Positions 17,289 to 34,880 of a stretch of 64,000 nt of DNA are shown here, piece after piece. The notes beneath the pieces were generated by a model that had not been told where the DNA came from, made no database searches, and saw only the letters and a list, made by a program, of their open reading frames with translations. The DNA lies in the UHGV virus genome UHGV-1372088; one strand, 5' to 3'. How positions within the stretch are numbered: the first letter of the stretch is position 1; every line of letters begins with the position of its first letter. The translations under genes were made by a program, and so were the position numbers. The stretch comes from a virus.

Positions 17289-18086
17289 ATGACTATGACC
17301 GCACATGTAAACGACGACACCAATGATCTGCTGGCTATGCTGAACGAGCTTGAGACGCTGAGCGACCCGACTCCGTCTTCCGAAGCTAAGCCGGCCACCA
17401 CTGACCTGCTTGATGGTCTGGACCTGGACCTGTCCACCGAGGAACTCCTGTCCGACATGGACGCCATCTCTGCGGCGGTAGATGATGAGCTGGTTGCTGA
17501 AGCCGCGCTATCTGAAATTGAGAGCGCCGAAGTCATCGAAGCGTCACCTAAGAGTGATTACGTTGTCGATATTGAAGCGGAGAAAGTTAAGGCTGAAGCA
17601 GCAGCCGCCAAGGAAAAGAAGCCGAAAGTCAGCAAGCCAAAGGCACTCAGTGCGCCGCGCGAGAAGAAGGAACGCCCGGTCGCCGCTCGCAAGCGATTCG
17701 CAGTCGGCGAAATGACGGATGAGCAGTATGAGTCTGTCGGGATCTTCCGCGAGACGTTCGAAGAGGCGCTGGGGGTCGCGCCAGTGAAAGCGGCAGACAA
17801 AATCGTCAATCTTCTGGCGTGGTACTTCAACGACGTGACCTTGAGCGTATACACCGAGATTTGCTTGCGCAAAATCTGCGAGAGCAAACAGGCGAAAGTG
17901 GCTGAAATGCGCCTGGCCATGATGAGCAATCCATCTAAGCCGTATCCAGTCAGCACGGCAGGATCGCAGGCTGGCCAGATGCTGGCGGTATTCCCGGCGC
18001 TCAACATTGCGGAAAAGCAGGAGCCTGGCGTACTGGTCCTGAATGAAGATTCTCCGATTGTCGCTAAATTCAAAGCGACGATGTAA
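17289..18086 (+). CDS. hypothetical acidic protein with Lys/Ala-rich central segment (265 aa)
   Basis: Highly acidic N-terminus followed by a KEKKPKVSKPK basic stretch. Function unknown. Confidence 0.45.
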   Translation: MTMTAHVNDDTNDLLAMLNELETLSDPTPSSEAKPATTDLLDGLDLDLSTEELLSDMDAISAAVDDELVAEAALSEIESAEVIEASPKSDYVVDIEAEKVKAEAAAAKEKKPKVSKPKALSAPREKKERPVAARKRFAVGEMTDEQYESVGIFRETFEEALGVAPVKAADKIVNLLAWYFNDVTLSVYTEICLRKICESKQAKVAEMRLAMMSNPSKPYPVSTAGSQAGQMLAVFPALNIAEKQEPGVLVLNEDSPIVAKFKATM

Positions 18087-18108
18087 CCACCCTCTCGAAA
18101 CCACAAAA

Positions 18109-18140
18109 CGCGCCATGATCGATTGTGGCGCGTTTTCTTT
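18109..18140 (+). terminator. rho-independent terminator
   Basis: CGCGCCA-(10 nt)-TGGCGCG followed by TTTTCTTTT. Confidence 0.65.
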
Positions 18141-18320
18141 TCCATCCAGATAATCTCCCCACGAACCAACACAAAGCCATCAGGGTGAGTCCTGTCGCTC
18201 TCGGAGCGCATCGGCGCCCACTGTCTTCACGAGCTGTATCATTTGAATGCCTTTCATTGTTTGGTAAACTATGAAACAAGCAAACAAGTAAACAAGTAAA
18301 TTACGAAATAAGGGCGTTAA

Positions 18321-18545
18321 ATGCACAATCACACCAACGTAGTGCCGCAAGTGGAGACAGACTTTATCACCACGGCGCGTGACTTGATGACTGACAGGAG
18401 TAAGGCTGTGTCGCTTTTCACCTGGTCCAGCGAGGCGATCGTCAACAACAAACATTCTGATGAGCTGATACAGCTGATCGGTTATCTCATCAACGAAAAC
18501 TTCGCGCTGGACGTTCAGCTTAAGGGCCGCGCCCAAGCAAAATAA
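18321..18545 (+). CDS. hypothetical protein (74 aa)
   Basis: Preceded by AAACAAG x3 repeats. The ORF itself is unremarkable. Confidence 0.35.
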   Translation: MHNHTNVVPQVETDFITTARDLMTDRSKAVSLFTWSSEAIVNNKHSDELIQLIGYLINENFALDVQLKGRAQAK

Positions 18546-19122
18546 TCTCAGTTTGTAATGTATGTAGATGTTTACTTACCTACCACAGTCACGATAAAAT
18601 ACACATGCCCACCATCTGGTGGGTTAACTGTGAACCACAATCGTAAAAATCCCTTAGAGCAGTACGGGCAGGCAAAACGCAGACGGAGCGGTAGAAGTAT
18701 CTCCACTGTTCACAGTTATCAATATGACACTTAGATCTCGGGTGAAGAGACGGTCGGTTTAAGTGGCGCAGTAAGAAGCGGATCTCCATATGGGGTGAAG
18801 TGGGAAGCCCAGACGGGACTACGCTTAGGGCAAATTTGTTGGACATGTCAGGTAAAACTGGCGAGCGACGCAATGCGTAAAACGGTTTTGATTCGGGAAC
18901 AGTATCAAGCGGATCAACACTGGATGGAAGTCGCTCACTTGATTGCCGTGGCTGACGCCATAATCGCTTTTCTTCAAGAGTGATTATGAGGTCCGCCTGG
19001 CCACTCAAGGAGGTCGGTCAAATAACTTAGTTTGAGCTTTGATGGTTCAGTTGGAACCTAGCTTTGACGGTTATTTGCCTAGGAACTCCTTGGCCATAGG
19101 AACCCAAAAACCTTAAAACCTT

Positions 19123-19176
19123 ACAACCGTAAACGGTTGTAGAAACGTGAAACGTGAAACGTGAAACGTGAAACGT
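19123..19176 (+). repeat. hairpin (ACAACCGTAAACGGTTGT) followed by a tandem heptamer (GAAACGT)x5
   Basis: Read directly in the sequence. Lies in the 1-kb noncoding tract at 18.55-19.59 kb. Confidence 0.8.
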
Positions 19177-19199
19177 AAGGCCCAAGTCTCGCCCAGAAT

Positions 19200-19420
19200 T
19201 TAAAACCCAAAAACCAAGGTCAAAGTCAAAACCAGCCCCTTCGGGGAAAGCGCTCAGGCTTCGCCATCGCGCTTTGAAAAAAGGTGATCTGGGATGGTTG
19301 ATAAAGTCAAAACCCAAAGTCAAAACCCAAAGTCAAAACCAGCCCCTTCGGGGCAAGCACTCCGGCTCTGCCGTCGCGCTTAATTCAAAGATCATATCTG
19401 GGATGGTTGATAATCAATCG
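19200..19420 (+). ncRNA. two roughly 110-bp paralogous structured units (candidate small RNAs or regulatory elements)
   Basis: Each unit has AAAACCCAAAGTCAAAACC repeats, a CCCC-TTCG-GGGG hairpin (UUCG tetraloop on the + strand), a second AAAGCGC...GCGCTT stem, and a conserved ATCTGGGATGGTTGATAA tail. The two units are about 80-85% identical. Confidence 0.35.
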
Positions 19421-19456
19421 CCAGACCTCTCCTTCCTTCCTTCCGGCACATTTTAA

Positions 19457-19476
19457 ATATGTATTTACATACATAT
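19457..19476. promoter_or_regulatory. class-B inverted repeat ATATGTATTTACATACATAT
   Basis: Same motif family as at 8784, 13487, 41560, 43457 and 53056. Confidence 0.5.
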
Positions 19477-19592
19477 ATCATGTGTGTATGCTGTTTCTTA
19501 AGGACAAGCTCACAAAGTGAGTATCTCAAGGATGAGAACCCTTGCGGCTGGTAAACCCAGCCGCTTCCATTTGAAACTTATGGAAGAGACCT

Positions 19593-20093
19593 ATGTTCCG
19601 TTTCCTTTCAGAAATGCTTCTGCCGAAAGAAGTTATCGAGTCAGTCGTCCAGGTGAAGACTCGAAATCTTGAATCCAGAATTGCCATCCTTTTAGACCGT
19701 ATTCGCTCCGCTGAGATGAAGATTGAAAGCCAAGCCGATGCCATCGTTGCTCTGACCAATGTGTCTAAAGGGAGAGGCCAGCCAAACAAGGATCGTAATC
19801 GTAATGGAAAACTACCAGAGAAAAAGGCTCAAACCTCTAGCTTATCTGGTCGTCGGCCTATTGTCGGCTCCACTAGCTCTCGCTCCAGTGGCCGGTTTGT
19901 TACAGAGGGTAACGCCAGCACCGGAATTGCCGCGCCAGTTCACGCGCCAGTCGTTGAAGAGCGCAGCTACGGCAGCCACCACTCACACAACGACACCAGC
20001 CACCACCACAGTCACTCCCACCACAGTCACGACACTGGAGGGTATGACTCTGGATGCTCCGATTCGTCATCTTCGTCGTTCTCCTGCGATTGA
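19593..20093 (+). CDS. His/Ser-rich protein (166 aa)
   Basis: C-terminal HHSHNDTSHHHSHSHHSHD tract followed by a Ser/Cys-rich tail, so possibly metal binding. Confidence 0.45.
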   Translation: MFRFLSEMLLPKEVIESVVQVKTRNLESRIAILLDRIRSAEMKIESQADAIVALTNVSKGRGQPNKDRNRNGKLPEKKAQTSSLSGRRPIVGSTSSRSSGRFVTEGNASTGIAAPVHAPVVEERSYGSHHSHNDTSHHHSHSHHSHDTGGYDSGCSDSSSSSFSCD

Positions 20094-20136
20094 TGAAAGT
20101 CAGGAAACAACGAAACAACTTGTTTAATAAATAACG

Positions 20137-20574
20137 TTGGAAATAAAAATGTTTGGAATTTTTAAGAAGAAAGTTCGCAAAGCCGCTGTAGAAGTTAAGA
20201 AGATGGAAAACCGCGATGCGGTTGAAGCGACCGTCTGGGGCGCTTACGCGATCGCATATGCTGACGGCACCTGTGACGCGAAAGAAATCGGCGTTCTGGA
20301 AAAAACCATCTCCGCGCTGCCTTCCTTCTCCCCGTTTGCCGGTGAGATCGCCCAGATGAGCTCTAACATCCGCTCCCGCTACGAAGCATCCCCGCGTTCT
20401 GCTAACGCTGAAGCAATGCGCCAGCTGGCCGAAGTTGCTGGCACAACCGATGCAGTTGACGTTCTGTGCCTGTGCCTGGATATCGCCGACAACGACGGTA
20501 TCGATGAGAAAGAAGAGCAGATGCTGAAGAAGATCGCCCAGGCTCTGCAACTGTCTCTGGATCAGTATCTGTAA
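20137..20574 (+). CDS. TerB-like domain protein
   Basis: Two copies of the TerB signature A-x-ADG-x-x-D-x-x-E (AIAYADGTCDAKEIGVLEKTI and LDIADNDGIDEKEEQMLKKIAQAL). Confidence 0.5.
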   Translation: MEIKMFGIFKKKVRKAAVEVKKMENRDAVEATVWGAYAIAYADGTCDAKEIGVLEKTISALPSFSPFAGEIAQMSSNIRSRYEASPRSANAEAMRQLAEVAGTTDAVDVLCLCLDIADNDGIDEKEEQMLKKIAQALQLSLDQYL

Positions 20575-21791: not shown

Positions 21792-23465
21792 ATGTCAACC
21801 GCAGTGTCAATACTCGAAAGCTCCGCCGGCGCCGTTGATTTCCGCAAGGAAATGAACGTCATCCATGACATCGTGGCAGAGTGTGAAAAAGAGATCGCCC
21901 TGATGAACCAGGTGCATGATTTCGTTTATTCACACGACCGCGTGTCGATGATCAACCGGCTCCAGGTACTGAGTCGCCGGCCAAATGATGAGAACCTCCG
22001 AAACGTCCACCAGCTTAACGCCGTCAATCTGGACTTCGTTAAGCAAAACATCTGGGCCGAATACTGGAGCAAGGTGACGGATATGACTGGCGCACTTCTC
22101 ATCATGCCGGCTGAACGCCGCGACCAGTGGCGCAGCCAGTTCACGTTAGGCGTTCAAAAGATGGCGAAGAGAGATCGCGGTGGATTCGAGCGCCAGGTGG
22201 AAGAGTTCGTCGGTGTTCCTGAGTTCACGGCTGACACAGTGATTCCTACCATGACCACGCTGCTAAATGACCGCCACAAATATCTGGCCGAGCGCGTCTA
22301 TGGTCTGTTTAAGGCATTAAGCCCAACGCACAAAACCAACAAAACATACGGCTTCAGCGAGAAGCTGATCATCTCCTACTGCGTGACCGACTTCTGGAAT
22401 AGCAGCATTAGCCTGAACTACCGCAAAGCGGACGTGATCGACGACCTGCGCGTCATGCTGCACTTCTTTGCACATAAGGAGTTCATCACCCTTAATAGTT
22501 GCTCTGAGATGCTCTCGGCGGCTTACAGAGCGCATAACTGCGAAACCGGTCAGTGGATGAATGTCGACGGCAACTTAATGCGTGTGAAGATTTTCAAAAA
22601 CGGCAATGCCCATTTTGAAATCCACCCGGATGTCGCGTGGAAGCTGAATGAAGTGCTGGCGCACAGTATGCCGGCCGCCATCCCGGCGCCGTGCCGGAAG
22701 GCGCCAACAACCAAGGCTCCGAAAGAGTTTGGCTACATCCAGAAAACGGTTTCGACGAGAACGCGAACGCTGATCCGCGACCGCCGACACAGTGGGGCCG
22801 ACGAACTTTTCTATTTCCCGGACTCGCATCTTCAGAAGGCTGAGATTCAGGACCTGGAGCGCACGTTGAGATTTATCGGCGGCGTGAAGATTAGAGGCAG
22901 CTGGAAGTTTCCATATGAGTGCGCCGCAACGCTCGATAGCATTGTGAGCCTGGGTGTCATTCCAGAGGTGAAGTCGCACCAGTTTTACCCAACGCCTGAG
23001 CCAATAGCGAAATACGTTTCGCAGATCCTGAAGTGCCAGCCCACCGACCAGATTCTTGACCCGGATGCTGGGCGGGGTGATCTGGTGGCGTTCCTCGATG
23101 TGCCGGAGGAAAACATAACGAGCGTGGAGATATCCCCGCTGTTCTGCGAGATTCTGGGCGCCAAGGGGTACAACGTCTACAACAAGGACTTTCTGGCCTG
23201 GTCGAAGGAGTTCGCCACCGCCCCTGGCTACGACAAGATAGCGATCAACCCGCCTTACTCAGAGGGCCGTGCCAAAGAGCATACGCTGGCGGCGCTGACC
23301 CATCTCAATGAAAAAGGAATTATGGTCGCAGTCCTGCCAGCCGGCTACAAACCGGAAGAGTGGATCGGCAATGAGTTCGTTTGTGCCAAATCAGGTCGTG
23401 ACTTCGCCAACGAGTTCGAGGACACCGGCATCACGGTAGCAGTATTCGTTTTCAAAAGAGCATAG
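21792..23465 (+). CDS. fusion protein: roughly 390-aa N-terminal domain of unknown function plus C-terminal gamma-type N6-adenine methyltransferase domain
   Basis: Motif X FYPTPEPIA, motif I ILDPDAGRGDL and motif IV INPPYS occur in that order (X-I-IV) within the last roughly 165 aa. Confidence 0.65.
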   Translation: MSTAVSILESSAGAVDFRKEMNVIHDIVAECEKEIALMNQVHDFVYSHDRVSMINRLQVLSRRPNDENLRNVHQLNAVNLDFVKQNIWAEYWSKVTDMTGALLIMPAERRDQWRSQFTLGVQKMAKRDRGGFERQVEEFVGVPEFTADTVIPTMTTLLNDRHKYLAERVYGLFKALSPTHKTNKTYGFSEKLIISYCVTDFWNSSISLNYRKADVIDDLRVMLHFFAHKEFITLNSCSEMLSAAYRAHNCETGQWMNVDGNLMRVKIFKNGNAHFEIHPDVAWKLNEVLAHSMPAAIPAPCRKAPTTKAPKEFGYIQKTVSTRTRTLIRDRRHSGADELFYFPDSHLQKAEIQDLERTLRFIGGVKIRGSWKFPYECAATLDSIVSLGVIPEVKSHQFYPTPEPIAKYVSQILKCQPTDQILDPDAGRGDLVAFLDVPEENITSVEISPLFCEILGAKGYNVYNKDFLAWSKEFATAPGYDKIAINPPYSEGRAKEHTLAALTHLNEKGIMVAVLPAGYKPEEWIGNEFVCAKSGRDFANEFEDTGITVAVFVFKRA

Positions 23466-23473
23466 AGGCGCAG

Positions 23474-23662
23474 ATGATTGAGTTAACGCTGAAGGAGTAC
23501 AACGCAATCCACACAGACTATCGGGGCGTATGGTCAACGGAGCGAACCGACTGGCCCGATTGGGAAAGCGTGAGAGAGCTATATATGGGCAAGCGAACCA
23601 TAATGAAGCACGGTAGTCTATTGATCGAAGGACTTCATTTTCAAATTAAAGAAGCGCCTTAA
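23474..23662 (+). CDS. hypothetical protein (62 aa)
   Basis: Short ORF directly after the MTase gene. Confidence 0.3.
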   Translation: MIELTLKEYNAIHTDYRGVWSTERTDWPDWESVRELYMGKRTIMKHGSLLIEGLHFQIKEAP

Positions 23663-23726
23663 ACAAATTGTTTTCTCCCTTTTCTGGTTTGTGACAATAA
23701 CGCCAACCAGAAAAGGAGAACCCCAG

Positions 23727-23960
23727 ATGACCCCTTCAAACACATATCTAACAGTCAGTCTGACAGGCACGAAGGAAGTCGCCCCAAACGACCTGGCGGC
23801 ACTTTATCGAGACTGGACGAACAATTATCTGTCCGTCGCCCGGTTCGCTGAGGATTACGGCGTCAGCGTCGCCCAGGCGGAAGTTACTATTGCAATGGGC
23901 CGTGCGGTCCACGATGCCCACGCCAACTGGCTTAAAGAGTTCGTTCGGTCCGCAGACTGA
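23727..23960 (+). CDS. hypothetical protein (77 aa)
   Basis: SD AAGGAG 8 nt before the ATG at 23727. Confidence 0.35.
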   Translation: MTPSNTYLTVSLTGTKEVAPNDLAALYRDWTNNYLSVARFAEDYGVSVAQAEVTIAMGRAVHDAHANWLKEFVRSAD

Positions 23961-24044
23961 AGCGAAAGGAAAAGTGGGGATCGATGCAATAGCGATCGCC
24001 CACCATAATTGGTACTATTCAATAACATACAACCGTCTAAAATC

Positions 24045-24070
24045 GCCGCCCGTTGAGGCGGCTTTTTGTT
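24045..24070 (+). terminator. rho-independent terminator
   Basis: GCCGCC-CGTTGA-GGCGGC followed by TTTTTGTT. Confidence 0.65.
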
Positions 24071-24167
24071 GCCTGTATTAGCCAGTCGTGCCGTAAACAA
24101 CTTGTTTAGTGCCTGTCTGGTTTTGAGAAAATGACTTCATTGAGACAATAGCAGCAAGGAAATAGAA

Positions 24168-24518
24168 ATGGAAATGAGCGAACAAAAGTCAGTAGAGAAG
24201 CGCAAGGTGAAAGCTGGCTGGTGGGTGGCGCTGGGACTGGCTGTCGCACTGCCAGTTGTCGCGGCCACCAAGTTGAGCATTTTTGTTGTGGCCCCTATCG
24301 GCGCCATGCCGGAAGGCAAGACGGTGATTATGTGGAAGTCTGGCCAGGTGGATATGAACTTCATCGAGAGCCCAGAGGGTATGTGTTTATCAAAACGCAG
24401 CTTCAGCGCCTGGTGCAGCTTAGGTGCGATGAATGTTGCGGTGGCTGGAAACAAGATCCTCATGCGTCTGCCGTATAGCGCAACCCTTTACAACGCTTCA
24501 GTCCGCAACCGTCTCTAA
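24168..24518 (+). CDS. membrane-anchored protein (116 aa) with one N-terminal TM helix
   Basis: Hydrophobic segment WWVALGLAVALPVVAA after a basic N-terminus. A class-A operator lies upstream at 24093. Confidence 0.4.
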   Translation: MEMSEQKSVEKRKVKAGWWVALGLAVALPVVAATKLSIFVVAPIGAMPEGKTVIMWKSGQVDMNFIESPEGMCLSKRSFSAWCSLGAMNVAVAGNKILMRLPYSATLYNASVRNRL

Positions 24519-24539
24519 CAACATCACTCTGGGAATATT

Positions 24540-24971
24540 ATGAAACGTATCTCCGCCGCATTACTGGCCACCACACTTCTCTCGGCTTGCGCAGAGCAGC
24601 CCGTTCAGTCCGTAGTAAGTGCGGCAACGCAGAAGACGAACGCCATGCGATACCCAGTATGCGAGTTCTATTCGAAAGACACAGGCTTCTTGCACACAGA
24701 TGCCTACGTTATCGATTATGGTGATTCGTTTGCCGTAATTTACGGAGAGGGTGAGGATAAAATACTGCGCAGCTTTAGAATACAGTCGGACGGGATAAAT
24801 TCGGATCTGACTGATCGCAATTCTATCTTCTCCAGATATGTGTCCGAGTACGACAGCAACATAATGACCTTTGACATTTACACAGTAAAAGATAAGCGCT
24901 TCGTTAGCCTGGACTGTGACAGAGACAAAGCGTACCCGGTGGCGGCGAAACCGTTCACCCCAATCAAATAA
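24540..24971 (+). CDS. lipoprotein (143 aa)
   Basis: Signal peptide with lipobox LLSAC (MKRISAALLATTLLSAC). Confidence 0.55.
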   Translation: MKRISAALLATTLLSACAEQPVQSVVSAATQKTNAMRYPVCEFYSKDTGFLHTDAYVIDYGDSFAVIYGEGEDKILRSFRIQSDGINSDLTDRNSIFSRYVSEYDSNIMTFDIYTVKDKRFVSLDCDRDKAYPVAAKPFTPIK

Positions 24972-25004
24972 CGTTTGACTTTACCTTGACCAAACAGATC
25001 AACT

Positions 25005-26560
25005 TACCCCGTAATCTATAAGAGTGAGTTGATCTGACAATCAAAACCCACCCAAACCCCTCGAATACCAGACGCAGCAAGCCTTCCAGCCAATTTTCAC
25101 CCATCAGACCTGCCATCTAAGACACGTCAATAAAAAGTCAAAGGGAATAGTAAAATCGACCCCAAAAATTGACTTTTATGACCCGCCAGTCTTATACCCG
25201 CCAAATCCACCACAGAACAGCCACCAGAAGAGAGTTACGATTCAACCCACGCAATCATGCAGCCCAAAAAGGGAAGCGCCCAAAACGCATTACAGAGCGT
25301 TTCACGGACCCACACCCAGAGAGAAGAATCGACCCAAGAGAGAACCAACAACCAAAAAAGACAAAACCTTCCATGATAGCCTATATCCCAATACCTGAAC
25401 ACAACCCACCGGAAGAACACACCCCACAAAATTCACAAGCCACCCCGCCAGACACCACCCACATCCCAGAGGCGACATGCCAATACACACCACCCAAACT
25501 CCCCAAGGCAAACACCACCCAACATTACCCAGGCCACAGAACACCACCCAAACTCCACAAGGCTACCGGCACCTGCCATTACCCACACCTCAGATTCCCA
25601 TTATTGAGGAAACCAGCAATACCAAGGCCCAGAGAGCAATTACCAAGGAAACAACATAATTGGAACGCAAGGAAACAACCAAACAACTAAGTCACTAAAC
25701 ATCACCACACGCCATTACCCAAACAACAAGGAAAACGAACGAACAAAGCCAGCCCTACATGCCATTACCCACACCCCAACGAAAGAAAACACCCAAGAGA
25801 GAACAACACAGAAACACCATAGAGAAACGATAAAGGAATCACAGATAAGGACCGCCCAATAAAAAGAACCAACACAGACAGACCAGAAGAGAAGGGCAGA
25901 GAGGAAGAAAGAGAAGGGCCGGAAGAAAAGACCGTATGGGAGGAAAGAAAGAGCCGTAGAGAAAGCGATAGATGGAAAGCCGTATAGAAAGGGAAAGGCT
26001 GGAAGGGGAGACAGAAGGGGAGAGAAAGGAACGACCTGAAGGAACGACCGGAAGAAAGGAAGTGTAAGAGGGTCGGAAGAAAAGGGCCGCGCCACGCTTT
26101 CCGTATAAATTACACGGCCAGGTTTCCCCTCCCTACCATCCGCCCCGACGGCCCACCATCCACACGGTCAGCCGTAGCCCATCCCTTCCGGTCCCGTCGG
26201 TCGCACCACTCCCTGTCCCGTCGGTCAGGTCCGGCCCGGAACCGCATTTCGGGAACGGGTGGAAGGTCGGTTATGGAAACGGCGAGAAACGGCCAGCTTT
26301 GCCTTCACCGAGAAACGGCTGGCTTTCGGTATATACCGCATCGGTCCGCCGGCCGGTTGTCGGTCAGGAAGAACCAGGCGGCTGCGCGGCGCCAGGACGG
26401 GAGTGTCCGTCGGGAAGTGGTCGGGACGTCCGTTGGCTGCCAGCGAACGAAGACCACCAGCATACGGATGTTCTGTCGGGGGACAACGTGGAACATTCGG
26501 TCTAAGCCGTCGGCGCGTGGGGAGACGTTCGGACCGTCGGGACCAGTGGTGCCGTAAACA
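25005..26560. other. non-coding tract of extreme strand asymmetry: C+A-rich and T-poor (about 25.0-25.85 kb), then polypurine and GGA-rich (25.85-26.10 kb), then GC-rich with GTCGG and GAAACGG repeats (26.10-26.56 kb)
   Basis: Composition read directly. Only low-complexity ORFs are present. Internal repeats include CACCACCCAAACTCC x2 and CCATTACCCACACC x3. Confidence 0.8.
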
Positions 26561-26594
26561 TCTTGTTTCCTGCCTGTCCAGTCCTGGGATAATG
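26554..26594. promoter_or_regulatory. class-A operator/promoter: GTAAACATCTTGTTTCC...TGGGATAATG
   Basis: Same architecture as the copies at 21721, 27533 and 29142. The ATG lies about 31 bp downstream. Confidence 0.55.
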
Positions 26595-26625
26595 GGTCTA
26601 CACCAACAAGAACGGAGTAAAGCAC

Positions 26626-26844
26626 ATGTACAAGCATTTAAATATCAGCATTACGCTATCGGACAATAGCATGACCCTTCGCAACGATGAGGCGCTAGGC
26701 AATTTGATTCGCTCGGCAGAAGTTATTACCAAGGTGTCAGATATGTTGGCTAAAGGCCACTGCTCCGGTGCCTTTGGGGTGCCTGTGGGGACTGAGAGTT
26801 TTGAACTAGCCTGGAACTGCTCTGTTTCTGAGTCGATTGTATAG
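26626..26844 (+). CDS. hypothetical protein (72 aa)
   Basis: First gene after the class-A promoter. Confidence 0.4.
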   Translation: MYKHLNISITLSDNSMTLRNDEALGNLIRSAEVITKVSDMLAKGHCSGAFGVPVGTESFELAWNCSVSESIV

Positions 26845-26852
26845 GGGGAGAT

Positions 26853-27065
26853 ATGAGCGTCCAAATGCCTGATTTATTGAATTACTGGACCGTCGATTCT
26901 GTCGCCGAGTGTATCGACGGCGTGGGCCAGGAACTGTCCCGTAAGCTGTGGTCATTCGTCACAGCAGATCATTCGCCGCTGGGCAAAGTGGCCTGGGAAA
27001 CGTTTACCGATGAAGAGAAGGCGGAGCTCGCCGCCGCTATCGCTAAAGAGTTCCCGGAGGAATGA
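26853..27065 (+). CDS. hypothetical acidic protein (70 aa)
   Basis: SD GGGGGAG before the ATG. Followed, with a 4-bp overlap, by a 123-aa ORF. Confidence 0.4.
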   Translation: MSVQMPDLLNYWTVDSVAECIDGVGQELSRKLWSFVTADHSPLGKVAWETFTDEEKAELAAAIAKEFPEE

Positions 27066-27433
27066 TGGGACTGACTACCAAGCCTCTGCTGGAGCCAACG
27101 AAGGCGTTGATGGGCGGCTGTAATGATTTACGGCTGGTCTTCCCATACGAGGGGAATCTCACGGCGGAGAAGAAGACGGAGATGGCCCGTAAGTTGTGCA
27201 GCTGGTGGAACAGTGACGCCGGTTGGGAGACGCTGAAGAAGAACGGTCGCTTTAGAACGGACATTCGCCTTGATATGGCTAACAGCCTTGGCTTCTTCGA
27301 TCGCTTCTGTGGTCGGTACAAGTCTGTCGAGGCGAAGACAGTGGTTCTGACGACCGGCGCGGAGATGGTGAGTTATGCCGGTGATAACTGCGGTGGGAGT
27401 ATTGAGCCGCACAACTTCGTGATCATCAAGTAA
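27062..27433 (+). CDS. hypothetical protein (123 aa)
   Basis: ATGA-coupled to the upstream gene, an arrangement seen in antitoxin/toxin pairs. Confidence 0.4.
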   Translation: MMGLTTKPLLEPTKALMGGCNDLRLVFPYEGNLTAEKKTEMARKLCSWWNSDAGWETLKKNGRFRTDIRLDMANSLGFFDRFCGRYKSVEAKTVVLTTGAEMVSYAGDNCGGSIEPHNFVIIK

Positions 27434-27532
27434 GCCCCGCCACCAGCAACGGTGGCTTTCTTCCATCCGCTGCCGTCGGCGCCCATAACGTCCCAAACAC
27501 CTTGTTTCCAGCCTCTCCTATTTCCTTGCGCC

Positions 27533-27573
27533 TTAAACAAGTTGTTTCCTGCCTCTCTTGTTCTGGGATAATG
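27533..27573. promoter_or_regulatory. class-A operator/promoter: TTAAACAAGTTGTTTCC...TGGGATAATG
   Basis: Directly read. A degenerate half copy lies at 27490-27510. Confidence 0.55.
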
Positions 27574-27602
27574 GCTTTACACCAACAAAGAGAGAGATAC
27601 AC

Positions 27603-27962
27603 ATGGAACGCTTCCACTACTTCACCACTCGCAACGCGGAAAAGACTTCTTTCACTGCGATCATCACCACGCCTGTCGATGGCCAGAACGAGTTTTACGT
27701 CGCCCACGACTTGTCTAACGTGCTGGCGATGGTCAACACGTATGGGGAAGGAGATTTCGGAACTATCCGCGTACACAATGCGGAGAAGCTCGCCCTGGTG
27801 GACTTTGACACCAGCATCGACTATCTGGCCAAAGACGCTGTGCGCATGTCAAAAGAGTACGACAATGGCGCCTCTGGTGACTTCGCTTTCAAGATGTCGG
27901 ACGACGCTCGTTTCGTTGAAGAAGAAGACGTGACTTTCTACATGGACCTGGATTCCATCTAA
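27603..27962 (+). CDS. hypothetical protein (120 aa), start moved to MERFHYF
   Basis: ATG positioned 30 bp after the extended -10, with SD GAGAGAGA. Confidence 0.4.
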   Translation: MERFHYFTTRNAEKTSFTAIITTPVDGQNEFYVAHDLSNVLAMVNTYGEGDFGTIRVHNAEKLALVDFDTSIDYLAKDAVRMSKEYDNGASGDFAFKMSDDARFVEEEDVTFYMDLDSI

Positions 27963-28154
27963 ACAAGGCGCTGGTGGACACCCACCAGCCTTTCCTTCCG
28001 CTCCCACGCCGACGGCCCAATGCATCCCATCCTTCCCTTCGGGGTGATGATAAGTATCCATTTACCTACACAAAACGCTATTGTGCCTGCCCAGCGCTGG
28101 TAATATACATCCCATCGAGAGAAGAGACTCTCACCCAAACAGAGGAACGAAACG

Positions 28155-28448
28155 ATGGCCAACATCTCTTTTATGCGTAAGCTGGAGCAACATGCTCGAC
28201 ACGATCGCGCTGGCTTCAGGATGAAGGGAAAGGAAGTCCTGCTTGCCATGTCAGTGAATGACTTCGCCATCGAAATGTTCCGTGAAACGCTCGTTGATCA
28301 GCTTGGTGAATCCAGACAGCGCCTGGTTGTAGAGCAACGCTCCCGCATCTCTGACGTGGGTTACAAGACAGTGCAACGTCTGTTCCCCAATGACCAACTG
28401 ACCGCAGCACACAACGCTGTGACCGCTTTAATGGCGACGCATCACTAG
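28155..28448 (+). CDS. hypothetical protein (97 aa)
   Basis: SD AGAGGAACGAAACG before the ATG. Confidence 0.4.
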   Translation: MANISFMRKLEQHARHDRAGFRMKGKEVLLAMSVNDFAIEMFRETLVDQLGESRQRLVVEQRSRISDVGYKTVQRLFPNDQLTAAHNAVTALMATHH

Positions 28449-28487
28449 TCGCTACTGAATAACCATGTGCTTTGCTGAATTTCCAGC

Positions 28488-28516
28488 AGCCCCGAAGAAA
28501 TGCGGGGCTTTTTTTA
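28488..28516 (+). terminator. rho-independent terminator
   Basis: AGCCCCG-AAGAAATG-CGGGGCT followed by TTTTTTT. Confidence 0.75.
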
Positions 28517-28572
28517 TTGTATGCATCAACATACAAGGTTAGTATTGTCGGGCTCAACAACATGGAGGATTT

Positions 28573-29007
28573 ATGAGCCTAACTCGTAACGATATGGTCT
28601 ATGACCTGTACTACGCTTCAAACACCGACCCAATGACCGCAGATCGCACCGCCACGCTGACCATTCAGCTGCGCGACGAAGCGGGAGCCACCAAACTGAC
28701 CACCCAGCTGTCCCGTACCATCGTCCGTGCGACCAAAGCGAAAGTCTACGCCGTAGGGCAGCAGATGATCGTTGCCGGCGATGACGCTCTGCTGGTGGCC
28801 ACCGAAGCATACCTGCGTAAAGATACCGCCAGTCTGACCGAAGATCTGATTTCCAAGGTGATGGACTTCATCGAGGGGAATATGGGCGCAGGAAGCACCT
28901 GGATGGGCGTCTACGGGATGAAAATCTTCTCAGGCGAACAACTTTCCGCACTGCTGCCGGCCAGCGTCCTGGATACCGACGGCACTGCGACCAAAGCCAC
29001 CGCTTAA
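28573..29007 (+). CDS. hypothetical protein (144 aa)
   Basis: SD GGAGGA before the ATG. Followed by a terminator at 29028. Confidence 0.45.
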   Translation: MSLTRNDMVYDLYYASNTDPMTADRTATLTIQLRDEAGATKLTTQLSRTIVRATKAKVYAVGQQMIVAGDDALLVATEAYLRKDTASLTEDLISKVMDFIEGNMGAGSTWMGVYGMKIFSGEQLSALLPASVLDTDGTATKATA

Positions 29008-29027
29008 TAGCCGTTAAGCAACCTGCC

Positions 29028-29056
29028 AAAGCCACGCAAGCCGTGGCTTTTTTCTT
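29028..29056 (+). terminator. rho-independent terminator
   Basis: AAAGCCACG-CAAG-CCGTGGCTTT followed by TTTTCTT. Confidence 0.7.
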
Positions 29057-29141
29057 GACACCATCCAGATACCCTCCGGCTACCGCCAGGCAAAATACCA
29101 CCCAAATCGCCTCCGGCACCGCGCACCTTGTTCATAACGCC

Positions 29142-29181
29142 GTAAACAACTTGTTTCCTGCCTATCTCAGTCTGGGATAAT
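29142..29181. promoter_or_regulatory. class-A operator/promoter: GTAAACAACTTGTTTCC...TGGGATAATC
   Basis: Directly read. Confidence 0.55.
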
Positions 29182-29218
29182 CATTCCATCAAAACGAAAC
29201 ACACAAAAATAAAAGGAA

Positions 29219-29497
29219 ATGCACATGAATCTCGTAAACCAAATCATCTCCCCGCTCGTCAGCTTCTTCGACCTTCCAGCTGCGGAACAAGCCGACTTCG
29301 ACTTTATCGAAGAAAGCGATCGCTCGTCACAAGCCTTCTTCCTGTATCAAGACAGCCACTGGTATGTGGGCGACTTCCTTAAAGACTCCGCACCGGAAGG
29401 ATGGGACGCCGCGATGGGAACTTCTGCTTTCTCCGCCGTGGTTATCAAGCTCACCGATGACTTCGAAGGCGTCCACGTCGCAACCGCTCTTAACTGA
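29219..29497 (+). CDS. hypothetical acidic protein (92 aa)
   Basis: Follows a class-A promoter. Confidence 0.4.
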   Translation: MHMNLVNQIISPLVSFFDLPAAEQADFDFIEESDRSSQAFFLYQDSHWYVGDFLKDSAPEGWDAAMGTSAFSAVVIKLTDDFEGVHVATALN

Positions 29498-29514
29498 TAC
29501 AGAAGGAATGCGCC

Positions 29515-29718
29515 GTGAGCGAAATTAATAATCCAGAAACTGAGGCGTTCTGTAAGGAGATCGCCCCACGATACAAAGCCGCTCGTTCCGCCGTCTCAGA
29601 CGACATGAGAACGCAGGTAAGAACAGAACTTGATACCTGGGCCAACGACCGCAAACTGAAGCGGTGGGAAGTGATCGTCGTCATCGACCGAATCCACCAA
29701 ATCGCCTCCACGCTGTAG
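29515..29718 (+). CDS. hypothetical protein (67 aa)
   Basis: Short ORF 18 bp after the preceding gene. Confidence 0.35.
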   Translation: MSEINNPETEAFCKEIAPRYKAARSAVSDDMRTQVRTELDTWANDRKLKRWEVIVVIDRIHQIASTL

Positions 29719-30225
29719 AGAACGAGCCACCGCTTCTGGTGGCCTAAATCACATCCGCCGCAGGGACGGTCCGGTAAAACGGTCAGGGTTCGCCGTAGGG
29801 GATCGCCCAGGAAACGGCTGAAGAAACGGGAGCACGGTTTTTTCGGGAAACGGCTGGCTTTTTACATGTACCGGGCGGCTAATCGTCGGTGGGGTGGTGC
29901 CGCTCTTGCGTCGGGAGGGGCGTCGGGAGCTTGGTCGCCGCTTGGGGGTGAGATAGCGGACCTCCATCCAGATGGCTGGAAAAATGCTTCGACTGCTAAT
30001 CAATCGCAGATCATTGGCGAGCGGATACAGTATCACGGATCGCCACGCTGTAAACCATGCCCGGAGAATAAGAGACGACGATAAAACGCAATATGAGCCA
30101 TTCTAAGCGCGTCAATTGCATGAGTGTTACCAGTGTATGGCGTGTCTCTTTTAAAGCGCTTACAGTCGATTCTATGCGTTATTTTGCATGGCAATTCTGC
30201 GATATCTGGCATATCGTTTACGCCA

Positions 30226-30251
30226 ACAAAAAAGCGCCCAATTGTGGGCGC
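30226..30251 (-). terminator. rho-independent terminator for minus-strand transcription
   Basis: Perfect hairpin GCGCCCA-ATTG-TGGGCGC preceded on the + strand by AAAAAA (a T-run on the minus strand). A near-identical copy lies at 30309-30331. Confidence 0.7.
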
Positions 30252-30308
30252 TGTGTGACGTTGTGAACGTGGGAATGTTGGGACGTGGAGCGATGGAAGC
30301 CAGAAACG

Positions 30309-30331
30309 AAAAAAGCGCCCATAGTGGGCGC
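30309..30331 (-). terminator. rho-independent terminator for minus-strand transcription (second tandem copy)
   Basis: GCGCCCA-TAG-TGGGCGC with a flanking A-run on the + strand. Confidence 0.7.
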
Positions 30332-30349
30332 TGAATTGCTTGTCTGTGG

Positions 30350-31642: not shown

Positions 31643-32146
31643 TTAACCAACCACCTCGATGCTCGTCACCCAATCGAAGAACACTTCAACCTTGCCTTCC
31701 ATACCATTTAGGTTGTCCAACCCGACTGACCATCTGTTCAACCCGGCGACCCGCCCGGCATACTGGCGACCGGTGACGGTTGTGACCCTTATAGTTTGCT
31801 CGGCTAGTCCGGCCGCCTTACATACTTCGAAGTAGTCTGCCGATGGGGTAGGGTGTGGCGGCTGCTCCGATATCTTAATCGCCACCCTGCCTTCTGGGAG
31901 TACACTACGTTCCACAAAATGCCGACTCTCGATGGCGACAATATTAGTCACTGACGTGATATATCTACGTCCATCAAAGTCACCAAGATTTCCAATCTCA
32001 ACCTTGCCTGGGGCTCTCTTTAAATTGAGAATGTTATGAATCAACTCCTGACCTGACGCGAAATTAATCTGACACGGTCGCTTACTGTTTTTAAAGAAGG
32101 CGAGGTTGTCCATCACTTCGTCTATATATTCTTTGGTTAGTGACAT
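31643..32146 (-). CDS. hypothetical protein (167 aa)
   Basis: Last gene of the minus-strand helicase operon. Confidence 0.45.
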   Translation of the reverse strand: MSLTKEYIDEVMDNLAFFKNSKRPCQINFASGQELIHNILNLKRAPGKVEIGNLGDFDGRRYITSVTNIVAIESRHFVERSVLPEGRVAIKISEQPPHPTPSADYFEVCKAAGLAEQTIRVTTVTGRQYAGRVAGLNRWSVGLDNLNGMEGKVEVFFDWVTSIEVVG

Positions 32147-32520: not shown

Positions 32521-34113
32521 TTACTGTTCCCCCCGTAATATCGAATCAAATTTAAATTGCTGGTTTGTTGGCTGTATGCCTTCTGCAAAACCAGGCGTAG
32601 ACTCCACTATCGTTTTTCTCTCCATTGAGTGCTGGAGTAGATTTTTATGAAAACCGTCTACAAAATCGGTTATGAAGCAGACATTGGCCTTTCCTTTTTT
32701 TGCTCGTAACCCGCGACCGACACGCTGACGAAACTCAACTTCGGCCTTCCCGCCACCGGCAATTATCACTGCTCCGACGCTCGGCACATCGACACCAACG
32801 TCGAGGATTGTCGAACCCACCAGCACATCAATCTCACCTACTGCCAGACTTTTTAGCTTCTTCTTGCGAACATCATGGCTGGACTTGCCGTTGATGAAGT
32901 CGCAGCGAATGCCTTGCTCACGCATCATTTCGACAAGGATCTGCCCGTGGCGTTCAATCCTAACAAGAGTCATGCAGTTCAACCCTTGCTTTTTGTAGCT
33001 TAAAGCACTAGAAACAATCAGTTTATTACGTGCGAGATTGTATGTAACCCCAAGTTGGTACGCTTTCTGGTAGGGGTCACGAACATTAAGACGAAAATTG
33101 ATGAATTTATCAGCTTTCTCTTTGTTCAGACGGATCTCATCTGGCACGTAGGTCGAATTGTGATATTGAAAATACGGTTTTGCAAGGATGCCGCGATCAA
33201 TTAGATACTTTTCAGTCACTTTGATCTCAATACGACCAGAAACAGCCATTAGGCGCATATTTGCCTCTGTACTGTCCTTCATGAAGGGGGTCGCTGTCAG
33301 TGCAAGTCGGTAGTCAGCGTTCTTGCACAACTTTGCAATATCGTTAAAGCTGTTCCCGGACGACTCATGCGCCTCTTCAAGTATGAGAAGAGTTACATTT
33401 TCGAGGAACTCACGCATTTTCTGACGCCTAGCCATCTGTTTTTTATATTTTGCCGGCTCCAGACTCTTGGATGGCTCGGCCAGCCAGCTGGAGATGGTCT
33501 GCACCGTGGCAACGTTGATGTATCGTGACGGTTTAAATTCGCCAGCTCCGACGACACCAACCTTCTGACCTTTTAAATTCGGCTCCCCATGTGCGGCGCG
33601 GTAGTCGATTGAATCCTGAAAGGCGTCTGCCATCTGGAACATGAGAAGACTTCGAGTGGTCAGGAATAGCGTCATACGGTTGATTCGCGCCGCCGCTTTA
33701 CATGCGACCTGTGACTTTCCGCCACCGGTAGCGATTTGCGCGATCATCCCACCAGACTTAACCATACGCTCAACCGTCTCATCCTGATAGGCGTAGTGCG
33801 GATTAGGTGGGAAGTTGTTGATGATCGGTTTGGCTTTCCCAAGCGGCTCAACCATTGGCTTGCGAAGGTAGGTGCATTCGATGCCTTTGTTTTTCAGGTT
33901 GTTGGCGATGGAACGCGCGAATCCAGCCGGGAAGGAGTTGGTGCTCCATGAGAACATGGTCGACGTACCCTGCCAGCCGCCACCGCCATACGGACTGTAA
34001 GCGCCTTCTTCGACCTGATAGCTCAGCATATCCTGAATCATCTTTCTAACGTCATCCCCAGCACCGCCGACGACAGCGTTCACGGCGTCACAAACAATTC
34101 TGACCATTGTCAA
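32521..34113 (-). CDS. superfamily-2 DNA/RNA helicase (DEAD/DEAH-like, ResIII-type)
   Basis: Motif I ATGGGKS. Motif II ILEEAH. Motif III LTATP. Motif VI QRVGRGLRAKK. An unassigned N-terminal extension of about 130 aa. Confidence 0.75.
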   Translation of the reverse strand: MTMVRIVCDAVNAVVGGAGDDVRKMIQDMLSYQVEEGAYSPYGGGGWQGTSTMFSWSTNSFPAGFARSIANNLKNKGIECTYLRKPMVEPLGKAKPIINNFPPNPHYAYQDETVERMVKSGGMIAQIATGGGKSQVACKAAARINRMTLFLTTRSLLMFQMADAFQDSIDYRAAHGEPNLKGQKVGVVGAGEFKPSRYINVATVQTISSWLAEPSKSLEPAKYKKQMARRQKMREFLENVTLLILEEAHESSGNSFNDIAKLCKNADYRLALTATPFMKDSTEANMRLMAVSGRIEIKVTEKYLIDRGILAKPYFQYHNSTYVPDEIRLNKEKADKFINFRLNVRDPYQKAYQLGVTYNLARNKLIVSSALSYKKQGLNCMTLVRIERHGQILVEMMREQGIRCDFINGKSSHDVRKKKLKSLAVGEIDVLVGSTILDVGVDVPSVGAVIIAGGGKAEVEFRQRVGRGLRAKKGKANVCFITDFVDGFHKNLLQHSMERKTIVESTPGFAEGIQPTNQQFKFDSILRGEQ

Positions 34114-34187: not shown

Positions 34188-34880
34188 ATGGACATCGAAC
34201 TTAAATTTTTGACGGTTGGCGTCGGCTTGCTCCGGCCCAATCCGTGGAACACGAACACCGTTGGCGCGGCCAATTTTGAGAAGCTGAAAACCTCTATCGA
34301 CCGTCTGGGTTTCTTTAAGCCCGTGCTGGTTCGTGAAGTAGCCGGCGGCTTTTACGAAATCCTTGGTGGCGAACATCGCTGGCGAGCAGCTGTTGAACAA
34401 GGTCGCGAAACTATTGCCATTAACTCGGTGGGCAAGATTGATGACGTTCTGGCTAAGCAAATGTCGCTCGTTGACAACGAACGCTACGGCGAAGACGACG
34501 ATCTGGCACTGCAACGCCTAATCGAAGAGCTCCAGACCTCTCTGGATTACAACTTTTCTGAAATCATCCCAATCGACGACGAGCTGCTGGCCACCGTCTC
34601 TCGCGAAAGCGCTGCCGACTTCGAAAAACTCGAAGAGCTGCTGGCGGAATCTGACGAAGAGGAACTTCCGAAAGACCCGCGCGAGAAGAAAGAGCGTCTG
34701 GGTGTAGACCACCAGACCATGCGCTTCAAGGTCAGCTACGACGTGGCGGAGTCGGTCACCACCATCATCAACCGCATCATCGCGGAGCAGGAAATCAACA
34801 CAGGCAATGAGTCAGAAGACGCAGGGGAAGCGTTGGTGTGGCTTTGCGATCACTACAAGGACGTAACCGATGAAAAATGA
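34188..34880 (+). CDS. ParB/sulfiredoxin-like N-terminal domain protein
   Basis: LLRPNPWNTN...EILGGEHRWRAA matches the ParB-N box (GxxRxxA). Confidence 0.6.
   Translation: MDIELKFLTVGVGLLRPNPWNTNTVGAANFEKLKTSIDRLGFFKPVLVREVAGGFYEILGGEHRWRAAVEQGRETIAINSVGKIDDVLAKQMSLVDNERYGEDDDLALQRLIEELQTSLDYNFSEIIPIDDELLATVSRESAADFEKLEELLAESDEEELPKDPREKKERLGVDHQTMRFKVSYDVAESVTTIINRIIAEQEINTGNESEDAGEALVWLCDHYKDVTDEK

Follow-up and report, generated by a model that had tools for sequence, protein, structure and literature searches.

A conserved non-coding tract of SSU5-type phage-plasmids with the features of a strand-oriented control module

Introduction

What is a gap of about 1.65 kb, without a gene and with a base composition far from that of the surrounding DNA, doing between two genes of a phage-plasmid? 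We address this question for positions 25005 to 26560 of the virus genome UHGV-1372088, a stretch of 64,000 nucleotides referred to here as the window. An earlier description made from the letters alone (the sequence-only reading) had singled out this tract as non-coding and had offered several candidates for its role: a long structured or protein-titrating RNA, DNA acting as a replication-type or unusual structural site, or a spacer between gene cassettes. Our comparison with related elements indicates that the tract is very probably a conserved, non-coding and strand-oriented control module of SSU5-type phage-plasmids. We are equally confident of the order of its parts, which are a boundary at which upstream transcription stops, a promoter-like block, a unit of ∼0.9 kb that is first A/C-rich and then A/G-rich, a terminator-like hairpin and an array of GGGAAACGG iterons. 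More tentatively, we suggest that the module is a lysogeny-silent, insulated unit of the lytic phase that could act as a transcription-activated (R-loop type) origin.

Elements of the SSU5 type occur widely in Klebsiella, Salmonella and Escherichia coli, clinical isolates included, and some carry resistance genes. The tract is their largest conserved non-coding feature and bears on a largely unexplained step, the switch from plasmid to lytic growth. Database records leave it blank or fill it with spurious open reading frames, and no description of the region was found in the phage-plasmid literature that we searched. It is experimentally tractable in E. coli LF82, which carries the SSU5-like phage-plasmid Cyrano, or in SSU5 itself.

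Results

A non-coding tract of extreme composition

The DNA of the window matches ∼110-kb non-mobilizable Klebsiella plasmids. Homologues of the gene downstream of the tract, used below as an anchor, are encoded by Salmonella phage SSU5 and several Klebsiella phages and on 35 IMG/VR contigs, which identifies the window as a Klebsiella SSU5-type phage-plasmid. The non-coding gap (24972-26625) extends from the stop of a 143-aa gene (24971) to the start of a 72-aa gene (26626), and three segments follow one another within it. On the + strand the first (25200-25880) has base frequencies of A 0.42, C 0.34, G 0.14 and T 0.09, giving A+C of 0.76; the second (25881-26085) has A+G of 0.84, T of 0.06 and 14 GGA triplets; the third (26086-26560) has a GC content of 0.64 against 0.52 across the window. 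Over the rest of the 64 kb, 300-nt intervals have A+C of 0.508 ± 0.039 (maximum 0.63) and T of 0.224 ± 0.039 (minimum 0.133), compared with extremes of 0.79 and 0.06 for intervals of that size within the tract, whose T-poor stretch is ∼900 bp long. These values confirm both the coordinates and the composition of the three consecutive segments that had first drawn attention to the locus.

Each + strand frame contains two to five stops across the tract and none is open throughout. Among distinct indels within clades in the A/C-rich span, 35 of 37 are not multiples of three. The longest stop-free stretch in the tracts of relatives ranges from 77 to 227 aa and is unconserved, and we found no reading frame conserved among these relatives that would speak for a coding gene with a low-complexity product. 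Small open reading frames for hypothetical proteins have been annotated on the tract in SSU5 (gp108-110; locus L038, 3693-4855) and in Cyrano (CYRAN_103/104; locus L166, 34382-35632); they differ in place and strand and are almost certainly spurious. The stops in every frame and the out-of-frame indels thus bear out the original view of the tract as non-coding, and its strand asymmetry indeed goes beyond what coding can explain.

Conservation of layout under sequence drift

Searches of plasmids and phages with the tract nucleotides (megablast and blastn) found identity above 94% in four plasmids only and returned no further match beyond these close relatives. Wider relatives were collected by anchoring on the flanking gene instead. 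The aligned nucleotide identity of the tract between clades is ∼50%, near saturation, and in nearly all relatives the equivalent slot is a gap of 1.4-1.8 kb, unannotated or doubtfully annotated, with the same three-part composition. Scored by explicit criteria, 34 of 36 distinct loci have all three segments, in the correct order and ahead of the anchor gene; these loci belong to Klebsiella, Salmonella and E. coli elements and include phage SSU5 and Cyrano. One exception, L020, has the three-part pattern only in part. In the other (L037, 2638-3800) an IS3-family insertion sequence stands in place of the entire tract, including the first iteron module; since this replacement occurs in nature, the tract is dispensable for carriage. 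In the complete 111-kb relative NZ_CP055187 the tract is the sole A+C outlier, and the GC skew of the whole plasmid rises monotonically, without an origin or terminus signal.

A comparison of five close relatives showed how this layout is maintained. Variable columns make up 2.5% of the A/C-rich segment and 1.3-3.2% of the neighbouring genes, but 17.7% of the purine segment, which also has 26 gap columns. Within the purine segment 51 of 76 substitutions exchange A and G, and insertions and deletions have a unit length of 11-13 nt; its purine content is retained despite the drift of its sequence. The substitution spectrum of the A/C-rich segment is dominated by transitions, as elsewhere, and A↔C substitutions (19% compared with 12-13%) are in only weak excess in a test meant to separate selection from mutation bias, an excess on which we do not build. 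In a comparison of 21792-25880 with 25881-29718, identity to the close relatives also falls from 97-99% on the left to 89-90% in the downstream operon, which places a mosaic (recombination) boundary at the purine/GC part. Together with the stop of upstream transcription at the left edge described below, this boundary leaves the suggested spacer between cassettes compatible with the data.

Could the tract then be a functionless spacer, its skew the product of local strand-biased mutation? The near-saturated identity between clades, the prevalence of transitions and the loss of the tract in L037 could all be accommodated in this way. We nevertheless consider it very improbable, because 34 of the 36 loci retain the boundaries, the order of the segments, the motifs and the promoter-like block, because the A/C-rich segment is as conserved as coding DNA among close relatives and because a single mutation bias cannot yield A/C-rich and then A/G-rich DNA on one strand. 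The sequence-only reading had allowed that the tract might be junk, depending on its fate in related genomes; its conservation there sets that alternative aside.

As RNA, the + strand is free of structure

A/C and A/G are two-letter alphabets without a possible base pair, and RNA of the + strand therefore cannot fold; of the complementary alphabets, G/U can pair and C/U cannot. The minimum free energy of + strand RNA over 25200-26100 is −0.07 to −0.13 kcal/mol/nt, z 4.3-5.8 beyond a background of 414 intervals (−0.304 ± 0.040 kcal/mol/nt, the least structured at −0.173). For the A/C-rich part the values are −0.07 to −0.10 kcal/mol/nt (z ∼5-5.8), compared with z 0.8-1.9 for its complement, and the mean for the A/C core over the 36 loci is −0.153 for the + strand, compared with −0.299 for the − strand. 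The motifs and the promoter-like block share the orientation of the flanking genes, from which we infer that the strand under selection is the + strand and that the selected property is the absence of structure.

These results weigh on the RNA candidates proposed originally. On both strands every segment folds no better than its shuffled versions (z +1.0 to +1.3), so that the tract is not a stably structured RNA; nowhere in the window does RNA fold less readily than in its A/C and purine parts. A scan of the window against Rfam 15 at gathering scores gave no match and a permissive scan gave noise only (c-di-GMP-II on the − strand at 22 bits, for a cut-off of 53.5). The GGA triplets are present as described, but their number equals the expectation from composition (14.4 ± 2.5) and so carries no separate signal, and the purine segment, itself structure-free, has no GGA-in-hairpin-loop arrangement like the units of CsrB/RsmZ. 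Runs of four ARN units number 1-2 against 2-4.5 expected (z −0.6 to −1.0). With neither signature enriched, no Rfam match and, as shown below, a silent locus in the Cyrano lysogen, neither a CsrA sponge nor an Hfq sponge is supported.

The purine segment has G clusters at its position in 11 of 13 lineages. Its purine runs are interrupted and the spacing of its G-runs is unconserved, and canonical G-quadruplexes or H-DNA, also among the first suggestions, thus receive no specific support. By a nearest-neighbour heuristic, with provisional parameters and a result that largely restates purine richness, the balance between RNA:DNA hybrid and duplex stability for a + strand transcript is more favourable to the hybrid in this segment than anywhere else in the 64 kb (z −4.7); in relatives the corresponding minima lie either inside the tract or at iteron module 2. 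With the most R-loop-prone DNA in the purine segment and iteron arrays after it, the earlier proposal of a replication-type DNA site is still compatible with the data.

Anatomy of the module

The anatomy in Table 1 was derived from an alignment of 14 clade representatives together with motif counts. The left boundary is marked by TTTCTATAAGAG...GTTGATC, invariant in all 14 representatives. The leader that follows bears CATAAGAAAACAA(C) in most clades, often running on into the palindrome AAACAAnTTGTTT; in the lineage of the window this copy is degenerate or lost. In NZ_CP055187 CATAAGAAAACAA(C) occurs on the + strand only (5748, 7120, 53140, 57315, 84985 and 107721), mostly 20-60 nt before the starts of genes, among them a parA-like gene, the primase gene, the anchor gene and a TerB-like gene, and together with AAACAAnTTGTTT it suggests a family of phage promoters or leaders that carry an operator. 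The promoter-like block P2 has the pattern TTGAC-N17/18-CTTATACCC in every clade, with conserved hexamer regions and a variable spacer. It is aimed rightward into the A/C-rich segment, and its pattern occurs just once in the window, as it does in the 111-kb relative.

Table 1. Features of the tract, the adjoining operon and neighbouring genes, in window coordinates
Feature	Position	Strand	Description and basis
Left boundary block	24972..25036	+	directly follows the upstream gene (24540-24971); TTGAC...GTCAA-type repeat; inverted repeats found
13-bp-arm hairpin	24995-25007 / 25024-25036	+	encloses invariant TCTATAAG (25015-25022); followed by GTTGATC
Leader	25037..25168	+	C-rich and G-poor; ATCAAC..GTCAA repeats at 25126-25142; alignment
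Promoter-like block P2	25169..25199	+	TTGACT (25169-25174), 18-nt spacer, TATACC in CTTATACCC (25191-25199)
A/C-rich, T- and G-poor segment	25200..25880	+	structure-free + strand RNA; strongest C>G (rut-like) stretch
Three oriented (T)GCCATTACCCA(CAC) copies	25575-25585, 25711-25721, 25761-25771	+	GRRAAAC ∼10 nt after each
Purine segment with G clusters	25881..26085	+	hypervariable in sequence and length, purine-rich throughout
Junction block	26062..26115	+	TGTAAG.GGG...CGC...CCGTATAAATT; hairpin plus A/U-rich tail, terminator-like; conserved in all clades
GC-rich iteron module 1	26086..26560	+	G(R)GAAACGG units at 26251, 26275, 26285 and 26311; seven YGTCGG repeats in one orientation; conserved core ∼26283-26340, CGAGAAACGGCTGGCTTTCGGTATATACCG
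Extended −10 promoter of downstream operon	26585..26593	+	TGGGATAAT; TGnGATAAT in all clades, 30-40 nt before the anchor gene
Operon of eight small genes	26626..29718	+	open reading frame list
Iteron module 2	29740..29960	+	GGAAACGG units at 29810, 29822 and 29846; core CGGGAAACGGCTGGCTTTTTACATGTACCG; three CGTCGG (29884-29926)
Two hairpin-plus-T-run terminators	∼30225-30335		where + and − strand genes converge, past module 2
FljA-like/phage 'transcriptional repressor' family protein	31643-32143	−	beyond the convergent terminators
UvsW/XPB-type superfamily 2 (SF2) helicase	32521-34110	−	∼6 kb from the tract; T4 UvsW aligns nearly full-length, E = 3e-10
Two ParB_N-domain proteins and ABC-type ATPase, operon	34188-36178	+	immediately upstream of the terminase genes

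The repeated motifs noticed by the sequence-only reading are present (GCCATTACCCA, CACCACCCAAACTCC-type 54-nt repeats, GAAACGG and YGTCGG). Three exact copies of GCCATTACCCA lie inside the tract, where 0.77 would be expected over the whole window, and tracts of all clades carry two to five copies of the (T)GCCATTACCCA motif, always on the + strand. The motif includes TTACCCACA, one mismatch from the DnaA box consensus, and such near-boxes are the only candidates for DnaA boxes beside the tract iterons. We rejected TTACCCACA as a DnaA box, given that the mismatch is at an invariant position and that a conserved GCCA prefix argues for other recognition. In the L005 and L008 clades a perfect DnaA box, TTATCCACA, lies inside the GCCATTA(T/C)CCACAC motif.

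At the junction between the purine and GC-rich parts, the consensus between clades is TRTAAG.GGG...CGC...CCGTAnnnATTCAA. Cyrano has a strong + strand intrinsic terminator here (10 bp plus T5, z −3.1), the L010 clade has one with z −2.8, and the hairpin of the window (−16.3 kcal/mol, z −1.3) is followed by UAUAAAUU. Stem sequences differ between clades, which is suggestive of covariation without proving it. If the terminator is real, it closes a non-coding unit of 0.8-0.9 kb immediately ahead of the iterons. The ops element of RfaH was also considered and rejected: judged by eye, CGGTAG-like motifs occur in the SSU5 clade only, the window has CCGTAG and the motif is unconserved.

The GC-rich segment is a one-way array of iteron-like GGGAAACGG repeats, with units of the form (A/T)TTTTC-GGGAAACGG-CYRG. 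In SSU5-like clades these are phased at 21-23 bp (lag-22 autocorrelation, z up to 4.6), SSU5 having six units spaced by 22, 22, 21, 31 and 22 bp, and phasing of ∼22 bp fits sites for a protein on double-stranded DNA. A second module lies in the same orientation 3.3-3.6 kb downstream, after the last operon gene, in every clade examined (for example L038, 7897-7975, and L002, 9202-9260), and shares a core of ∼55 bp with the first in five clades. The two modules hence bracket the eight-gene operon, and in the complete 111-kb relative they are the sole clusters of this kind. A contig scan with the phased iteron pair gave chance or CRISPR-like matches in unrelated taxa. Searches with the eight operon proteins matched only PHROGs of unknown function, and nothing in Pfam or NCBIfam. 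The gene at the end of the operon (67 aa) was considered as the iteron binder on a weak winged-helix hint and rejected, its model being a three-helix bundle without a fold match. As a separate observation, the GC-rich segment contains a Chi sequence, GCTGGTGG, on the − strand (26454-26461), and the L002 clade has CCACCAGC at the corresponding place.

The unit is silent in a Cyrano lysogen

Cyrano, carried by E. coli LF82, is ciprofloxacin-inducible and forms virions (PMC9928086). Its tract lies at ∼94,300-95,700 of the record, and we drew on its authors' strand-aware re-analysis of the RNA-seq data set GSE154648, which comprises ten samples from five conditions. CYRAN_103, which covers the promoter-like block and the first A/C part, is at 0 fragments per kilobase per million (FPKM) in both lysogeny broth (LB) replicates and at no more than ∼14, mostly below 3, in all ten samples. 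CYRAN_102, immediately upstream, is at 57 on an FPKM+5 scale in LB and at up to ∼590 FPKM, and CYRAN_104, which covers the junction and the iterons, is at ∼14 on the FPKM+5 scale, the Cyrano median on that scale being 9.8. The signal therefore drops more than 200-fold from CYRAN_102, to 0-2 FPKM, and it does so within a 111-nt gap homologous to the left boundary block. Silence and left-edge drop fit a repressed lytic-phase unit or an insulator. CYRAN_43 (L165, 40268-40822, − strand), a 184-aa hypothetical protein reported at 723 times the prophage background in LF82 lysogens (PMC9928086), was considered as a transcript of the tract and rejected, as it adjoins the integrase gene outside the tract. 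The Klebsiella relative NZ_CP055187 has a gene of similar size and strand beside its integrase (68714-69205).

The expression data bring forward a second explanation, that the tract is purely a transcriptional insulator, whose left boundary and very large Rho-loading (Rho utilization, rut) zone would keep transcription of the long gene array upstream from entering the downstream operon, and that the iterons are unrelated regulatory sites of the operon. Rho loads on ∼80 nt of C-rich, G-poor, ribosome-free RNA, and the A/C-rich segment is C-rich, G-poor, unstructured and untranslated over at least that length. Over 680 nt it has a mean C/G ratio of 2.56, for a background 99th percentile of 2.13, which makes it the strongest and longest such stretch of the window. 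Its RNA is free of structure and of open reading frames, we found no + strand intrinsic terminator between the upstream gene and the tract in the window, the Cyrano signal is lost at the left edge with the segment silent, and the conserved extended −10 promoter restarts transcription for the downstream operon. Yet a rut site requires ∼100 nt and not 700-900, and U depletion, purine segment, oriented GCCATTACCCA motifs and promoter-like block would all be superfluous. Moreover, the Cyrano signal is lost within ∼110 nt, so that most of the A/C-rich segment would never be transcribed, and the C/G ratio in other clades is only ∼1.8. On balance we regard a pure insulator as a somewhat unlikely explanation, though hardly more so than the origin that we tentatively prefer below.

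A transcript made only in the lytic phase could also act in trans, as a decoy RNA of ∼0.9 kb, A/C-rich and then A/G-rich, that titrates a host protein binding single-stranded RNA. Such an RNA would resist folding and, being poor in U, would offer few RNase E sites; possibly Rho would load on its C-rich part and stall on the purines. Pair-free alphabets on the + strand only, a conserved promoter-like start and terminator-like end, composition retained under sequence drift and repeated oriented motifs that could be protein sites are all in keeping with this explanation. We think it unlikely all the same: little or no RNA is seen in the Cyrano lysogen under the five conditions, neither the CsrA (GGA) nor the Hfq (ARN) signature exceeds expectation, Rfam holds no match, and the iteron arrays and their duplication would go unexplained. 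An abundant sponge RNA of the lysogenic state in particular is disfavoured, since the A/C RNA does not accumulate in the plasmid state. More doubtful still is the special case in which the structure-free RNA, made only in the lytic phase, traps Rho hexamers that load on its C-rich part and stall on its purine part, with antitermination across the genome as the outcome; the phage genes span ∼95 kb and almost all are transcribed in one direction.

Replicon and neighbouring genes

The plasmid state is served by another locus. NZ_CP055187 encodes a Rep_3 repA (L041, 26321-27433) ∼28 kb from the tract, with 21-bp-phased ACCGCTGACAGCATA iterons on both sides, a DnaA box and a GATC cluster; the replicon spans L041 26060-26330 and 27450-27560 (∼88.0-89.6 kb of NZ_CP055187). 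Given this distance, and given that the ACCGCTGACAGCATA iterons are unrelated to GGGAAACGG, the tract is not the RepA origin of the plasmid state. The PLSDB gene table omits this repA.

The helicase gene near the tract is named UvsW in its Cyrano homologue by the curators of that record, and it is expressed in the Cyrano lysogen together with an adjoining small gene. Some relatives carry a gene for RNase HI ahead of the TerB-like gene (NZ_CP055187, 106481-106981; CYRAN_82 in Cyrano). The ParB_N operon is distinct from the ParA-like partition gene elsewhere on the element. TerL is of the T4/P74-26 type, which does not by itself point to one packaging mode, and our literature search found nothing on the virion ends of SSU5.

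These neighbours are relevant to a further explanation, in which the tract is some other array of sites on double-stranded DNA, for packaging (pac), for recombination or cassette exchange, or as a ParB-like or repressor platform, and its strand composition a by-product. In its favour are phased, oriented repeats in two clusters, the mosaic boundary at the purine/GC part and the two ParB_N proteins, ABC ATPase and FljA-like repressor encoded within 5-9 kb. A strand-specific, pair-free composition over 900 bp would remain unaccounted for, however, the terminase genes are ∼12 kb from the tract and ParB sites are normally palindromic, all of which makes this explanation improbable.

Discussion

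The explanation that we tentatively prefer is that of a lytic-phase unit that initiates replication through its own transcript. Its observed basis is the anatomy and how widely this is conserved, the foldability of the + strand and the lack of expression in the Cyrano lysogen. Also in keeping with it are the loss of the tract in L037, the separate replicon of the plasmid state, the UvsW/XPB-type helicase nearby and the precedent of RNA-based origins in extrachromosomal prophages (PMC7157519). In the plasmid or lysogenic state the unit would be silent and insulated, as seen in the one relative Cyrano. On induction the promoter-like block may fire, and the naked A/C-rich transcript would run on into the purine segment with its G clusters, where its hybrid with the template is expected to be most stable. 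A persistent R-loop might form there, ending at the hairpin, and RNase H could process the hybrid to a primer. The iteron arrays would then recruit a putative phage initiator or helicase loader, the second cluster perhaps serving as a partner in cis, as with ori and crr of phage P4. RNA:DNA hybrids are most stable when the RNA is rich in purines, and ColE1, T4 oriF/oriG, mitochondrial DNA (mtDNA) and Epstein-Barr virus (EBV) oriLyt use transcripts of this kind; P1 oriL and the lambda origin require transcription under repressor control.

Several observations count against such an origin. The expression data come from an uninduced relative. The −10 hexamer of P2 (TATACC) lacks the usual conserved final T, which is why a consensus promoter scan misses it, and the hybrid calculation has the heuristic character noted above. 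In the SSU5 and L002 clades the junction forms only a weak hairpin, and RNAalifold finds no structure in a common register across clades. In the lineage of the window itself iteron spacing is irregular and strict 22-bp phasing is absent. None of the eight bracketed proteins has a recognisable DNA-binding or initiator domain, and no AT-rich unwinding element lies beside the tract iterons, the surrounding DNA being 60-65% GC. A tblastn search of the window (compared region 17800-20200) found no homologue of the RNase HI of relatives, which makes this gene variable within the group. Finally, C-rich, G-poor and untranslated RNA is an ideal substrate for Rho, and Rho suppresses R-loops.

What the tract would teach depends on which explanation holds. 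A true lytic origin would open a way into induction and the amplification of copy number, and extrachromosomal prophages would then offer a second case of initiation by RNA. An insulator or a decoy RNA would show that selection can act on the absence of secondary structure through pair-free two-letter alphabets; a Rho trap would be the first RNA-based inhibitor of Rho and a new design principle for decoy RNAs.

Among known systems, the sponge RNAs CsrB/RsmZ and the (ARN)n sponges of Hfq share with the tract its purine richness and many GGA triplets. They part from it in that its GGA and ARN motifs stay at the level of composition, with no GGA in hairpin loops, no Rfam match and no RNA in the lysogen. 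The rut sites, such as lambda tR1, likewise consist of C-rich, G-poor, unstructured and untranslated RNA, and upstream transcription is lost at this place in the relative; the tract is, however, about ten times longer than needed, depleted of U, followed by a purine block and equipped with a promoter-like start of its own.

Iteron plasmids (P1 oriR/incA, F and RepFIB) have direct repeats phased at ∼22 bp in two clusters that bracket genes, as here, but no Rep is among the bracketed genes of the tract, and the true replicon, with its ACCGCTGACAGCATA iterons, is ∼28 kb away. The ori/crr pair of phage P4 also consists of two clusters of the same short oriented repeats, placed in cis a few kb apart. 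The P4 repeats bind the alpha primase-helicase, and P4 has no skewed non-coding transcript; conversely, no alpha-type primase-helicase is linked to the tract iterons.

The R-loop origins (ColE1 RNA II, T4 oriF/oriG, mtDNA from the light-strand promoter to the conserved sequence blocks (LSP-CSB), and EBV oriLyt) have a promoter some hundred nucleotides upstream and a non-coding transcript that enters a G- or purine-rich zone of high hybrid stability, to which the promoter-like block, a putative transcript and the purine segment of the tract would correspond, and T4 encodes a helicase of the UvsW type such as lies beside the tract. The unit of the tract is much longer (∼0.9 kb), has iterons after it and has no evident antisense regulator, and its RNA is structure-free, unlike ColE1 RNA II, which relies on a precise fold. 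RNA-based origins are also known in the extrachromosomal prophages of cluster A mycobacteriophages (PMC7157519), a lifestyle that the present elements share; the mycobacteriophage RNAs are expressed in lysogens whereas the tract is silent in the Cyrano lysogen, and the plasmid state here relies on a Rep_3 replicon of its own. Taken singly, iterons, rut-like RNA and R-loop-prone purine tracts are all known. Their combination is, to our knowledge, new: ∼0.9 kb in which one pair-free alphabet follows another, with a composition that is conserved across the group, coupled to duplicated iteron arrays.

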